A stretch of DNA of 64,000 nt from Octopus vulgaris (Eukaryota), in the NCBI GenBank assembly GCA_951406725.2, contig OX597823.1:60140001-60204000 (forward strand), written 5' to 3'. A program made the translations under genes and the position numbers. The stretch's first letter is position 1. Every line of letters starts with the position of its first letter. Below are positions 6,491-56,789 of the stretch, one piece after another. The notes below the pieces were generated by a model that had not been told where the DNA came from, ran no database searches, and worked only from the letters and a program-made list of their open reading frames with translations.

Positions 6491-7715
6491 AAGTCTGAAC
6501 GAAGTAAGACTATAGTTTTGTCTGATAACAGAGCTTGTGCTTAATCAGGAGAACTTCCCAGATTAAGCATGAGTTCTCGCATTGTAATTACCTGCTTGTA
6601 ATTATATAAATATTAGACAGCATCAGTTAAATTCTTAAGAGAAACATGTATTTCAACTTCATCTAGAGAAGTCTTGATTCTTGAGATGATCATCCCTGCT
6701 GGTTTCAGTAGCTATTTGGTAACCATGATACATTGTTTAAAGGCAGAGGCAATATGAATTGATCATGAATACATGTTGCATGGTATTTAATATATCTGTA
6801 TTTGTCTATGATGTTCATATACATGACACTGGCCATTCTGAGTTATTTCTCTTAGCTCAATTTTGCTTCGTTTGTGAATATATATATATGTATGTGTATA
6901 TGTGTGTATATGTATGTGTGCATGTGTGTGTGTGTGTGTGTGTGTGTGTGTGTGTTTGTGTTAGAAGCCAGTTCCTTCTGCATAGGAAGGATTTAAATAA
7001 TTAAAAACAAGAGAAAATGCACTCACACACACTCGTACATGCACACACACATACATACAAACATACATACATACACCCATATATCCATCCATCCATCCAT
7101 CCATCCATCCATCCATACATACATACATACATACATACATACATACATACATACATACATATATACATACATACATACATATATACATACTTACATATGC
7201 ATATCTCCATAGACTGCTATTAGTGTGACTTAGTTTATTTTATCTCACATTCCAAGCCCTCTCTTTGAGTTTGGTTCTGGCAAAGCATTGAGCCGGACTC
7301 TGCTATCCTTATTTGGACCTCTTGCCATGATGTATGTTCATCTAGTGTCTTTTAGTTCATTCTGACTCATCTACAACCACCTAAATCACCAGTTTTTTAA
7401 AACAAGGAATCGAAATGCTGTTATAATAGATGGAGAGGGTGGGATCTTTGGTACTATGCAGTGGTGTCTAGTCCACGGAATGGAAAAGCTTTCAATATGT
7501 GTGTGTGTGTGTATACGTATATGTGTGTATATATATATATGTGCGTGTGTGTGTGTATGTATGTATATGTATGTGTGTATATATATATATATACATATAT
7601 ATATATATATATATATATATATATATATATATATATATATATGTATACATACATACATATACATATATATATATATATATATATATATATATATATATAT
7701 TTATTATATAGAAGG

Positions 7716-7766
7716 AGCTTCTACAGGACTAGAACTGTTTCATTCAAGAGAAATCTTCAGGAAGCT
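7716..7766 (-). ncRNA. Type I hammerhead ribozyme (mirror copy)
   Basis: Exact reverse complement of 8224-8274. Confidence 0.75.
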
Positions 7767-8223
7767 AGTTAACAAGAATTGTATTGGCATTTATACATTT
7801 AGGCAGGTTTAAAGGGGTGTTGGTGGGGGACTTATTGGGGGTAGGCATAGCGCAAAATATCATACTTGGGGGAGTGGTCAAGGAGTCAGTGTTAAATTAG
7901 ATAGAAGAATAAATTAAAAAAAAAAAAAATATATAAAAAAAATATAAAAATATATATATAAAAAAAAATGGGAATAGAGTTTTAGGTAAATAAGTGAGAA
8001 TCTCCTTATTTACCTAAAACTCTATTCCCTTTTTTTATATATATATTTTTATATTTTTTTATATTTTTTATTTTTTTATTTATTCTTCTATCTAATTTAA
8101 CACTGACTCCTTGACCACTCCCCAAGTATGATATTTTGCGCTATGCCTACCCCAAAAAGTCCCCCACCAACACCCCTTTAAACCTGCCTAAATGTATAAA
8201 TGCCAATACAATTCTTGTTAACT

Positions 8224-8274
8224 AGCTTCCTGAAGATTTCTCTTGAATGAAACAGTTCTAGTCCTGTAGAAGCT
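8224..8274 (+). ncRNA. Type I hammerhead ribozyme
   Basis: AGCTTC-CTGAAGA-TTTCTCTTGAAT-GAAA-CAG-TTCTAGTC-CTG-TA-GAAGCT: 6-bp stem I, CUGANGA core, short stem II (TTC/GAA, T-T at its base), GAAA, stem III, GUA cleavage triplet. Confidence 0.75.
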
Positions 8275-8429
8275 CCTTCTATATAATAAATTAATTTTAC
8301 TCTGCTATGTATTGAGTACCTTATTTACTGTGGTTAACCCCGAATCAACCCGGGACCTACATATATATATATATATATATATATATATATATATATATAT
8401 ATATATATATATATATCATATATATATAT

Positions 8430-52900: not shown

Positions 52901-55900
52901 ATGAGTCCTTTTCACTACCAGTAGGACCAGTCTTAACACTTCTCCTGTGAAGTACAGGTGTTATGATGGATTTCTTTCAGTTTATATTTCGTTTTGGGAT
53001 TTGGTTTGCAAGATTCTTTATATGAGTTCATGTATTGAAGCATATTCTGTTGTGTCTGGGGAGAGTCATTTTCGTTTTGTGCCTTTTGCTTTAACTCATT
53101 CACCGGTAAAATTTCCCCTTATTTCTTATTTTTATTTTCCTAAAATTTTCATTGCGTCTTGCAACTTTTCAATAAGGCTTTAACTGACCTGAAAGTATCA
53201 CAGAAGACACTTTGGTTGACCCAAGGAAGACTGTGCACATGCAGAGAAACTGAATCCAGGACCATATGGTTGGGTAGTAAGATTCTGAATCACACAGCCA
53301 TGCCTTTGCTTGTTTAATTTTTACATCAAACATATACTAACCCTTGAATCAGGTGAAAATACCTATATATATAATTTCTTTTCTGGTTTTCAATAGGCAA
53401 GTTTTTATAGCCACAAACAGTAAAAATATACTTGAGGGACTATACTTGATTAAATGTATTAATGGATTAATGACAAGATTAAGTTTCAGTAGTTTTATAG
53501 TAAATCATTTTTATTAGCTCTTTTACATTAGCAAATATAGGGCTTTGGGATTCACTTGTGCCTGAATCCTTTGATTAAAGAAAAAAATCCTGTAAATTAT
53601 TTCCCATTAGGCAATCTCTAATCAACAACGGAACCTTGAATCAATAGTAAAGGGGATAAAGATATTAGCTTTTTTGCTGTCTTTTATTAATTTTATTATT
53701 ATTTTTTTTTATCCTGCTTTGATATAAAGAAGTTATGGCAACTAAGAGGTGTCAGCTGTCTGAACTAATGAATTTTATTGTAAATATATTACTATTTTTT
53801 TTATGCCCGTTATTCTGTTTCTTTTTATGCTTGTTATTCTATTTTTGAGCTCTTAGAATTCACAGTTCGGTTTTGTAACAGACATCAATTTTGTTCATTT
53901 AAAGTATCTTTAACATTTGCTTTGTATATTCCTATTTGCTAAATTGGAGATAGCTTATCTGTTAAAATACAGACTAATGCTCCATTTTGTTTTAATATAT
54001 TTTTTTTAATAATAAAGATAATTTTTTTTAAGGAAATAAGTTTATTGTCTGTTTACTTTTCTTTCTCTCTCTCTCACCTTTTTTTTTTTAAACATTAAGA
54101 AATACAACTTCTTAAGATTTTGAAGTGTTACAAAATTAATGGAAAATTGTAAATCATTTATCATATGGGTTGGTTTGGTAAAAATAGGAACTAGACTGGT
54201 ACAAAATTTCCTAAGTACTTAGCATAAATAAGAGATGCATTTCCCAAAATATTTCTGATCCAATCTATTCATTATCATCATGACCTGGTATATCTAGTAG
54301 GAAGCAATTATATCAAAACACAACAATAATTGCTAATATAGATTGTATTAAAACCTATTAATAACGTTCTCAAGATTTTCTTTTGTCTACGAAAAGTTCT
54401 TCTATACATTCACTGAAGAATTTGATTATAGTTTTGAAGAGATATCAAGTGGTTTTAAAGTCGAAAAGGAAATACTTTACAGAATTATGAAATTACAAAG
54501 AGTTAGTTTCATGGTAGAGTGTGCAAACAATAACCATTATGGCTTCTTGCTCTGAATTTTGCTGCCTTCATTCTGTGACTTTATGACCATTAATCAGGAG
54601 TCATATCTAGCCTTATCTGCCAAGTTTAGTCAGAGAATTTAGTTATTTGATGTACAATATTAGATGATATATTTATGTGTTTTGTATTCACATGACTCTG
54701 ATTTGTCTTACATGAATTTGTCACTACAGACTAGGACCATGAGATAAGACTATTATTAAAACTAGTATACTTTTTCTTTTTTTTGACGTTTCTCTTAACT
54801 GCTTATTATTTCGTCGATTCCCAATTCCTTCGCTAATGATCTCCTTACAAGCGAGCGTTTTTAACCCTATATGTGCCATTTATTCAGAGAGTCACTTTAC
54901 AGTCATTCTAAATAGCAGCCAAATCTCTCTCAAATCACACCCTACTGTCTAAACGGGGGGAAAAAAAATTAAGGATGCTTTAGATAATATCATCTCAGAT
55001 ACATTATATCTGTATAAATTGTAGGATGGTCTTGGAAGGAATGCTTTTGATCATACAGCTGCTTGATCAAGGTTGACTTGGGTTTAAACAACAACAACAA
55101 TAACAACTATTATTGTTGTTGTTGTTGTACACCTCCAAGAATGCCTTTGATCATTGGTGTGTTTGATCAAGGTTGACCTGGGGTTAAACAACAACAACAA
55201 CAACAAGAACTATTGTTATGTTGCACCTCTCCACTTCATGCTGCCTCTTTCACCGAAGTCTCTTTCTTCTTTATCTCAACAACACTTTTACCTCCTAATA
55301 TCATTTACAATTGATCAACAAAAACTGTTATCACATACTTCATAATAAATCTGACAACATGGTAATATTTTACAATAATGATTTTTCAGATGGTCAGATT
55401 CATTAAAGCTTTGCTTTCGCTAAGTTACTTTTGGTGGTAGGGAACGACTGGTTAGTCAAGGAGGGAAGGGCAGGGTGGTGGTGCCTATGATGCTTTGATT
55501 TTGCAGGGATTCCAAGATTGGTGAGTAAAAGGAATGAAATTATTCAAATGGTCATCGATCTGGCTTGAATTCAAACAAAAAACGGGTAAACTTTACTAAA
55601 GGCACCCAAAGACCACGTAGTAGTGTTAAACTAATAGATTAAGTCTTAACCCCCCCCCCCCCCAGTCTACCCACCCAACCCCGCCACCAAGTGGCAGCCA
55701 TTTAATTTAATTCAAATAGCCATTGATCTGGCTCAAATTCCGACAACAACAGGGCAAACTCTACTAAAGACACCTAAAGACCACATGGTAGGGAGTGAGA
55801 GATTATGTCTTCCCCACCCTCAAGCTGTGGCCCTTTATATTCTGAGTTCAAATACCAGTGAGGTCAACTTCATTTGTCATTCTTCTTGAGTCAATAAAAT

Positions 55901-55984
55901 GCAGTACCAGTCAAATACTGGAGTCAATTTAATCGTAAACACCCTCCTCTCTCAAAACATGTGAACTTGTGCTGAAATGTTCAG

Positions 55985-56197
55985 AGAAAGTGATCCTGGA
56001 GTAAGCGACATGAGCCACCCTTAGCCACCCCAAAAGTGGGTCTTCACTCTAAAAAAGTCTTGCTTGGTGTCTGGTGGGATTGGAAAGGAATTCTGTACTA
56101 TGAGCTTCTCCCAAGTAACCAGACAATTAATTCTGAGAAATACTGCAAACAACTGGATGGGTTAAAAGCAGCAATTCAAGAGAAACGTCCAGAATTG
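55985..56197 (+). pseudogene. Mariner transposase internal fragment
   Basis: KVGLHSKKVLLGVWWDWKGILYYELLPSNQTINSEKYCKQLDGLKAAIQEKRPEL. Confidence 0.85.
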
Positions 56198-56484
56198 TGA
56201 TCTAAATAAATTTTAATCACAATTGTGAATTGTGATCTAAACATATTACCACACTTAACCAACTGACCAACTAATCAACCAAACTATAACAAGGGGTTGG
56301 CTTTATGCCTTACCACGTCGTTATAATTATGTATATAATTATAAAATATTTTGGAAATTTTACCTAAAAGATTTTTATTTCTACACTGGCTACCTGGTAA
56401 AATTATTATTGATTTTACACTTTATTATTAATATATATATATATATATATATATATATATATATATATATATATATATATATAT

Positions 56485-56789
56485 ACCGATCCATGATAGA
56501 AAATTCAACAAAAAAATGTACACTATCTGGTGAGAGATAAATATTATTTGTTTAAAGGTCACAATACATGTATTAAAGCACTAATAATAGTTTCAAATGT
56601 TGAGAAAACTCAAACATTTTTCTTCAGGCACAAACCACATATAACGAATGAAAGAAATTGAAGATTCAATTTCTTTAGTTTGTTATGATATGTGGTTGGC
56701 ATCTAAAGATATATGTTTGAGTTTTCTCAACATATGAAACTATTAGCAGCACTTTAATACATGTATTGTGACTTTCAGATAAATAATAT
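56485..56789 (-). mobile_element. Older fold-back Penelope-like element with decayed hammerheads
   Basis: Arms 56541-56661 and 56665-56789 around AAAGAAATTGAA-GA-TTCAATTTCTTT; tail 56485-56540 next to (TA)n; minus strand GTGC-CTGAAGA-stem II-GAAA-CTA. Confidence 0.72.

Follow-up and report, generated by a model that had tools for sequence, protein, structure and literature searches.

Tailed fold-back elements in a window of the Octopus vulgaris genome as probable insertion products of several Penelope-like families

A 64,000-nt stretch of the Octopus vulgaris genome (GCA_951406725.2, contig OX597823.1, positions 60,140,001 to 60,204,000 of the forward strand; hereafter the window, numbered from its first letter) contains six fold-backs, named elements 1 to 6, each made of an inverted copy plus an extension, or tail, on one side. 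These are very probably dead, 5'-truncated insertion products of several unrelated families of Penelope-like elements (PLEs), in which integration would have fused an inverted partial copy, head-to-head, with a copy bearing the tail. The initial annotation of the window had read five of them as snap-back products of PLE reverse transcription or, alternatively, as self-propagating non-autonomous fold-back elements bearing ribozymes. For element 3 the PLE origin was upheld by an open reading frame (ORF), by the junctions of its relatives and by its tail end, while the snap-back route was not sustained for that element.

Fold-back architecture

Fold-backs were detected by self-BLAST of the window with simple repeats masked, together with pairwise arm alignments; an ungapped palindrome census was left unused, since the gapped elements 3, 5 and 6 had escaped it. 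All five fold-backs of the initial annotation were recovered, each at E <= 2e-42 and each with its tail on one side only, as had been described. The fold-backs other than element 3, whose parts are given in the next section, are as follows.

7702-8360, + strand: element 1, candidate Hydra-like PLE 3' end; arms 7702-7995 and 7996-8288, tail 8289-8360, within (TA)n.
14993-15300, + strand: element 2; fold-back 14997-15175, extension of ~125 nt, within (TA)n; no hammerhead; putative PLE by layout only.
22328-23049, + strand: element 6, decayed, absent from the earlier list; fold-back 22328-22940 (73% arms), extension of ~110 nt between TA tracts.
49713-49972, + strand: element 4; fold-back 49713-49846, extension of ~126 nt, within (TA)n; no hammerhead; putative PLE by layout only.
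56485-56789, - strand: element 5, candidate Hydra-like; fold-back 56541-56789, tail 56485-56540; decayed hammerhead.

Self-BLAST and arm alignments gave the same layout of inverted copy plus one-sided extension in all six, with arm identities of 96, 94, 82 (gaps included, element 3), 88, 82 and 73% in elements 1 to 6 and, by arm alignment, extensions of about 72, 125, 53-58, 126 and 56 nt in elements 1 to 5. The centre loop measured 1-4 nt in elements 1, 2, 4 and 5, for which the earlier description as near-loopless holds; element 3 departs from it, with an asymmetric spacer of ~19 nt. Only inverted arms, and no head-to-tail tandem units, were found for these elements in the self-comparison. 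No clear homology between elements emerged from 15 pairwise comparisons (best unadjusted p 0.01 and 0.04), in agreement with the earlier statement that they have no obvious shared sequence. Four elements had been said to abut (TA)n, and do: elements 1, 2 and 4 on both sides and element 5 directly on one side, its other TA flank having been pushed away by a mariner-like insertion at ~56791-57681. The latter (56791-57681) is a non-autonomous element with terminal inverted repeats of ~37 bp, lying at the TA that adjoins the end of element 5.

An origin of the palindromes as artefacts of reads or assembly is extremely improbable. None of the listed contigs crosses any palindrome from end to end, and the assembly may hold local errors, as an exact 164-bp direct repeat (46891-47054 and 50060-50223), its copies 3 kb apart and each ending in a microsatellite, is either a recent duplication or an assembly error. 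The arms nevertheless differ by 4-27%, with indels, a later transposon has inserted into the flank of element 5, and element 3 has a target-site duplication (TSD) and a left junction that was read in two organisms.

Element 3 and its reading frame

45625-45638, no strand: left TSD of element 3, overlapping the family 3' end by its last 4 nt.
45635-45822, - strand: tail-bearing copy, apparently a Nematis-like PLE pseudo-long terminal repeat (pLTR) end; tail 45635-45692, family 3' end fixed at 45635/45640.
45640-45726, - strand: putative PLE ORF, codons 1-29, 90% identical to the N-terminus of the Octopus protein P0003.
45821-45955, + strand: tail-less inverted copy; begins at the family's common 5' point, 45821, and ends past ORF codon 11.
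45956-45969, no strand: right TSD, 13/14 identical to the left TSD.

Element 3, the element for which a 14-bp TSD had been noted and was found again, almost certainly derives from a PLE. A 31-codon frame runs from an ATG at 45726 to 45634, crossing arm and tail to the end of the element; a search of its peptide against 1.84 billion proteins returned one match, to residues 1-26 of an Octopus bimaculoides protein (E 7e-6). P0003, from O. sinensis, matches codons 1-29 at 90%, of which the tail-less arm holds codons 1-11 only. It overlaps the O. vulgaris protein P0004, and from its residue 11 onward it can be aligned with P0007, a protein of 815 aa (27% identity, E 2e-18). The search with P0004 retrieved 29 proteins of 680-1222 aa; three scored reverse transcriptase (RT) motifs (A, B, YxDD) were present in 29/29 of these long relatives, a CX2-5CxxC linker in 25/29 and a YxGE(T/S) motif (GIY-YIG) in 24/29. 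Through this chain of protein homology, from P0003 to P0004 and P0007 and on to the motif-bearing long relatives, the tail of element 3 is the putative start of a PLE ORF, and the linkage to an RT/GIY-YIG ORF that the initial annotation had proposed to look for was found for this element. The linker motif suggests that the relatives of element 3 are Nematis-like. Its spacing resembles, by eye, the Nematis rows of Fig. S2 of Craig et al. (2021, PMC8557442). The CX2-5CxxC motif is also present in Neptune.

P0003 is an annotated protein that fuses a PLE N-terminus to a methyltransferase domain; the domain was disregarded, the gene model being read as probably chimeric. No match was found in a PDB search with P0006, and the Atlas held nothing for P0002 (best 0.75) and only unnamed eukaryotic clusters for P0004 (0.97).

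The element 3 family in public sequencing runs

Family data concern element 3 alone and come from one search of public runs and one mapping of reads and contigs; run X20 (share 0.07) was kept out of the mapping and of the evidence. The element 3 stretch or part of it was present in 20 of the 24 listed runs (four organism labels, 12 studies in all), 14 of which held at least half of its words. Depth over the element was ~5,000-140,000 times that of unique flank in three DNA runs of three organisms, a ratio that is not a copy number. Contigs from two organisms cover the left junction, one with 0 and the other with 2 differences. In a third organism, a flank contig (run X4, contig 17) departs from the window at 45623, just before element 3, and the insertion may be absent there.

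Loose ends heaped at 45635 (79, 74 and 62 contigs; 267 reads) and also at 45640, marking a fixed tail end. Among 151 joints, 15 were shown, and 12 of these were head-to-head junctions, each at a different point; the other three, labelled 'opposite strands', were set aside, since their mirror positions mark them as artefacts of arm swapping. The second piece reached further 5' in 8 of the 12, by up to 167 nt, and the first piece consisted of the tail only in 3 of the 12. Joint starts near the predicted ribozyme cut site (45867-45883) were not used, since a 14-nt deletion in the window arm biases alignment starts there. The initial annotation had reasoned that a variable fold-back point would mark an insertion by-product and a fixed one a self-propagating element; the head-to-head junctions are variable, and the element 3 palindrome is therefore taken as an insertion by-product.

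That the palindromes are themselves mobile, copied whole as ribozyme-bearing fold-back elements with a fixed centre, is accordingly very improbable, and the earlier suggestion of self-propagating elements was not borne out. Depth across 45822 was ~1,300-3,000, against 20-60 for unique DNA, so that the window's junction may recur; set against this, depth at the centre is ~1% of that of neighbouring bins, all 12 of the head-to-head joints shown lie at different points, and the ribozyme is predicted to be sequestered in the hairpin.

A second alternative is that the family is a short (~205-nt) non-autonomous PLE derivative with its own transcript and fixed ends, like a short interspersed element (SINE), the fold-backs being its by-products. 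Its abundance is very high, 5'-side loose ends cluster at 45821 (45 contigs in run X1, 108 reads in run X22), and beyond 45822 some 41-105 contigs in each DNA run, together with 137 reads from RNA, share ~19 nt and then disagree. Internal RT initiation on a full-element transcript from the 5' pLTR would, however, give an identical short product; the reading frame is conserved with long ORFs; and some longer copies have, further upstream, a shared sequence similar to a branch point and splice acceptor (agreement of 0.84 in RNA and 0.48 in X1). A short self-propagating unit of this kind is judged unlikely. The branch-point and 3' splice-site-like letters lie just before hammerhead helix I in the longer copies and recall Drosophila Penelope, in which an intron ends at helix I.

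Proposed formation of the fold-backs

The tail-less arm of element 3 carries a 14-nt deletion in helix II and extends 19 nt further 5' than the tail-bearing arm; the 19-nt spacer was assigned to it because of the family continuation and the pairing of helix I. The two arms are thus non-nested, with the tail on one and 19 extra 5' bases on the other, and two priming events are therefore favoured. Snap-back fails for this element because each arm holds sequence absent from the other. Twin priming, with two independent complementary DNAs (cDNAs) from two cut strands, is the probable route. In the proposed course of events, the endonuclease would cut the two strands of an AT-rich target at positions 10-14 bp from one another, and reverse transcription would be primed from each cut end. 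Each priming would use one of two internal start sites, both located in the ORF's first ~90 nt: the distal site would yield the tail-bearing arm and the proximal site the tail-less arm. Both cDNAs would terminate at variable points before being joined by microhomology. A Poseidon PLE cuts and extends both strands in vitro and starts at two sites bounding its tail (PMC11167929). For the (TA)n-targeting Hydra-like elements with loops of 1-4 nt (elements 1 and 5 and perhaps also 2 and 4), a single cDNA snapping back on itself would fit as well as twin priming, and for these nearly loopless elements snap-back has about an even chance of being right. The formation of PLE inverted-copy structures is described as open in PMC8557442, and no account of twin priming in Penelope elements was found in the literature, judged by titles and the start of abstracts.

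Several points weigh against this interpretation of the fold-backs. An asymmetric deletion at the palindrome centre after insertion could mimic non-nested arms, and is the main alternative to two priming events. The ORF link is a homology chain in which the 31-aa peptide and P0007 gave no direct alignment, and Pfam matches on the long relatives were few (RVT_1 in 3/15, GIY-YIG in 1/15), all below the curated cut-off. Within the window no contiguous DNA joins any element to an RT or endonuclease ORF, and no PLE ORF was found there beyond the 29 codons of element 3; no match came from metagenome scans, whether made with a DNA pattern or with P0004. Twin priming predicts that tail-less arms have a fixed end, but none appeared in the 24 of 995 loose ends shown, the right flank being skipped, and no listed contig spans the centre of the window's own element 3 copy with 31 nt on both sides. 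The common 5' end near 45821 of many element 3 relatives also fits a self-propagating unit of ~205 nt. Finally, elements 2 and 4 have no hammerhead, and the evidence of repetition comes from element 3 only.

Hammerhead ribozymes

Hammerheads were sought with relaxed descriptors scored against shuffled windows, a strict descriptor having missed every one of them. Of the hammerhead searches that had been suggested earlier, Rfam gave no hammerhead among the 150 of 182 matches listed, which were mostly microsatellites matching microRNA models, and the relaxed descriptors recovered those of elements 1 and 3 and one in a further element, element 7.

7716-7766, - strand: hammerhead in the inverted arm of element 1, identical to that of the right arm (descriptor scan).
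8224-8274, + strand: intact type I hammerhead, right arm of element 1; helix I of 6 bp, U-U at 10.1/11.1, helix III ACAG/CUGU.
45776-45822, - strand: predicted minimal hammerhead, tail-bearing arm of element 3; G3-C8 core GUGAACA, helix II of 5 bp, helix III palindromic in the family majority.
47700-48185, - strand: element 7, absent from the earlier list; Hydra-format hammerhead between TA-type repeats, no fold-back.

Three elements had been credited with hammerheads, and they differ in condition: that of element 1 is intact in both arms, that of element 3 is a G3-C8 variant in one arm, and that of element 5 is decayed. The element 1 hammerhead scored 27-28 in both arms, with at most 0.025 such matches expected per shuffled window; its predicted cut falls after 8268, 92 nt from the 3' end, and by eye it matches the tabulated Hydra-clade format (core ending in U, U preceding GAAA, cut after A). 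Helix I has a pairing probability of 0.72-0.99 when the ribozyme is folded alone, versus <1e-55 within the whole element. The hammerheads would be passengers of the pLTR, predicted to be silenced within the hairpin.

Positions 3 and 8 of the hammerhead core pair with one another. In element 3 the core GUGAACA replaces CUGANGA, giving G3-C8 instead of C3-G8. The left arm scored 22, a score reached by 0.2 matches per shuffled window with a descriptor written post hoc; 14 nt of helix II are missing from the right arm. Most of the family keeps G3-C8 (no variant at the core positions among the 40 of 115 rows shown), with helix II intact and helix III palindromic, and the G3-C8 core is also contained in the loose-end consensus of run X1. 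A G3-C8 double mutant partly rescues cleavage in the Poseidon PAc ribozyme (PMC11167929). The literature searched yielded no natural G3-C8 hammerhead, turning up engineered mentions and a natural U3-A8 variant. Element 3 possibly represents, as far as its sequence allows a hammerhead to be predicted, a family-wide natural G3-C8 core that is perhaps unreported.

In element 5 (core at 56627 on the - strand and ~56702 on the + strand) the same Hydra format appears only when both decayed arms are read together, and neither arm by itself passes the descriptors. Element 7 has its core at 47977 (-), with G8 changed and a long helix II. A doubtful decayed core in element 6, near 22550 (-) and 22700 (+), fails every descriptor. 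Elements 2 and 4 gave no hammerhead by the relaxed descriptors, and a candidate in the tail hairpin of element 2 was rejected for want of a core; such lack could reflect truncation or a hammerhead-less clade.

Assignment of the other elements

Elements 1, 5 and 7 combine (TA)n insertion with the Hydra-clade-typical hammerhead format, by eye against File S2 of PMC8557442. On these grounds a PLE origin of elements 1 and 5 is highly probable, and element 7 is likely a plain PLE 3' end. No PLE-type ORF was detected for elements 1, 2, 4, 5 and 6 by matching to the 33 proteins retrieved. From layout only, a PLE origin of elements 2, 4 and 6 is somewhat favored.

These last three could instead be TA-targeting miniature inverted-repeat transposable elements (MITEs) or local hairpin duplications whose 'tails' are host DNA between TA tracts. 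None of them has a clear hammerhead or an ORF match, as would be expected under that account; nonetheless, they have in common with elements 1 and 5 their layout, size range and (TA)n context, and a similar TA-rich word stands at the end of the tail-less arm in both element 1 and element 2 (unadjusted p 0.04, one of the 15 comparisons). Naiad PLEs, moreover, are without hammerheads, target (TA)n and occur in Octopus (PMC8557442). The MITE or hairpin account is therefore considered doubtful. Element 3 does not have the layout of a MITE, its tail lying outside the inverted repeat and its junctions being variable.

Transcripts and possible editing

RNA data came from one run, of which ~6% was read, from an individual different from those of the DNA runs. 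RNA reads lay on both strands of element 3, and 82% continued into unlike sequence; no sharp RNA starts or ends were seen over the element in this run, and none at the ribozyme cut site. The pattern fits passive transcription, with no sign of cleavage.

A>G and T>C together accounted for 58/108 variable places in RNA versus 8/29, 9/38 and 9/36 in DNA (Fisher p 0.02, 0.002 and 0.004). Editing was scored on 35 of the 40 rows shown (115 in all), with four flank rows and 45822 omitted. Nine RNA-only A>G/T>C rows were found among those scored, all in the arms, and none in the six tail rows. Rows 45731/45917 and 45744 were dropped, their mirror positions varying in DNA, and one mirror pair was merged; five RNA-only sites remained, 5/5 with a 5' U, the background being 26/161. 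ADAR prefers a 5' U. These observations suggest A-to-I editing of the paired arms of element 3; in host read-through transcripts, the arms would form double-stranded RNA (dsRNA) that ADAR would then edit. Expressed loci are a biased subset, and neighboring inverted copies could also pair.

Comparison with known systems

Complex insertions of endonuclease-positive (EN+) PLEs, with an inverted 5'-truncated copy and a one-sided tail, are described by Craig et al. (2021, PMC8557442). The window elements resemble them in the head-to-head partial copy, the tail at one end, the strong 5' truncation, the hammerhead in the repeat and the (TA)n or AT-rich targets, and differ in tail length (~55-125 nt here, 30-40 nt there) and in that no window copy retains the ORF body. 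The window motifs tried were absent from the consensus files and supplement of that paper; one 11-mer shared with an Acropora ORF in the supplement was taken as chance. The earlier description of the system as poorly catalogued thus applies at the level of families, whereas the system itself has been described: the architecture is known, and the octopus PLE families proposed here appear uncatalogued. No description of these families was found in the literature searched for octopus with hammerhead or Penelope palindromes.

In Poseidon PAc of Anolis (Frangieh et al. 2024, PMC11167929) the tail is a part of the ORF that is flanked by two RT start sites. Element 3 is alike in having its tail inside the ORF start, downstream of the hammerhead, in its AT-rich target, and in that RNA-seq shows no ends at the position of ribozyme cleavage. 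It differs in that its relatives carry the CX2-5CxxC linker (Nematis-like), that its ORF begins ~60 nt past the cut site whereas that of Poseidon begins within helix II, and that G3-C8 is natural in element 3 and an engineered partial rescue in Poseidon.

Nearly all Hydra PLE hammerhead rows of File S2 (PMC8557442) are listed as inserting in (TA)n. Elements 1, 5 and 7 agree with Hydra-clade PLEs, including Hydra-1_Obim, in the format CUGANGAU...UGAA with a 4-bp helix III, in the position of the hammerhead about 90 nt from the 3' end and in (TA)n insertion; their sequences differ by eye from the Hydra-1_Obim row, which points to other families. Hydra-clade ORFs are marked by RWK, DKT and CxCX5C motifs and lack CCHH; in the window no ORF adjoins these elements.

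Pairs of hammerheads on opposite strands, 100-700 bp apart, were reported by Cervera and de la Pena (2014, PMC4209133). The element 3 ribozyme is like the minimal PLE hammerheads of that paper in its extra nucleotide after A9, its G10.1-C11.1 and its palindromic helix III, and unlike them in G3-C8 and in having G, not H, after A9; a natural covariant at 3-8, U3-A8, is included there. Non-LTR retrozymes (bioRxiv 10.64898/2026.07.22.740005) are likewise short, non-coding, hammerhead-bearing and PLE-derived. They are head-to-tail tandem repeats, whereas the window elements are head-to-head or solo.

Other features of the window

23470-25720: ~350-bp tandem region, preceding the 25608-27650 (-) frame.
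25608-27650, - strand: 680-codon open frame with reverse-transcriptase motifs, by eye presumably a long interspersed element of RTE type.
11379-12336 and 13323-13760: fragments of a non-LTR element with a restriction-like endonuclease motif (by eye).
42295-43356, - strand: mariner transposase remnant.
38518-39296, - strand: piggyBac-like remnant.
62334-62748 and 63124-63533; 36403-36569 and 36850-37016; 3921-4500: abundant SINE-like repeats paired in inverted orientation, with a few hundred bases between the copies; additional potential dsRNA sources.
1184-1268: 85-bp hairpin (86% arms) immediately following a SINE-like repeat; no tail or hammerhead seen.

Significance

The main outcome is one of annotation, namely several uncatalogued octopus PLE families. 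If the reading of element 3 is right, the rule that the tail lies inside the ORF start would extend from Poseidon to a Nematis-like element, and the tens of thousands of element 3 junctions would make it possible to test twin priming against snap-back directly in the genome. If G3-C8 is indeed the core of the whole family, it would supply a natural counterpart of the engineered swap, and hammerhead censuses based on CUGANGA would miss whole families. Near-perfect dsRNA loci are unusually numerous in octopus and hyper-editing is extensive; the repeat assignment in PMC5625713 did not include octopus. It would be a considerably bolder proposal, and one regarded as quite improbable, that the Nematis-like family has multiplied into tens of thousands of units of ~205 nt bearing an active natural G3-C8 hammerhead and that twin-primed PLE fold-backs are a main source of the near-perfect dsRNA behind octopus A-to-I hyper-editing. 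PLE fold-backs are, at the least, a candidate source of the octopus dsRNA loci.

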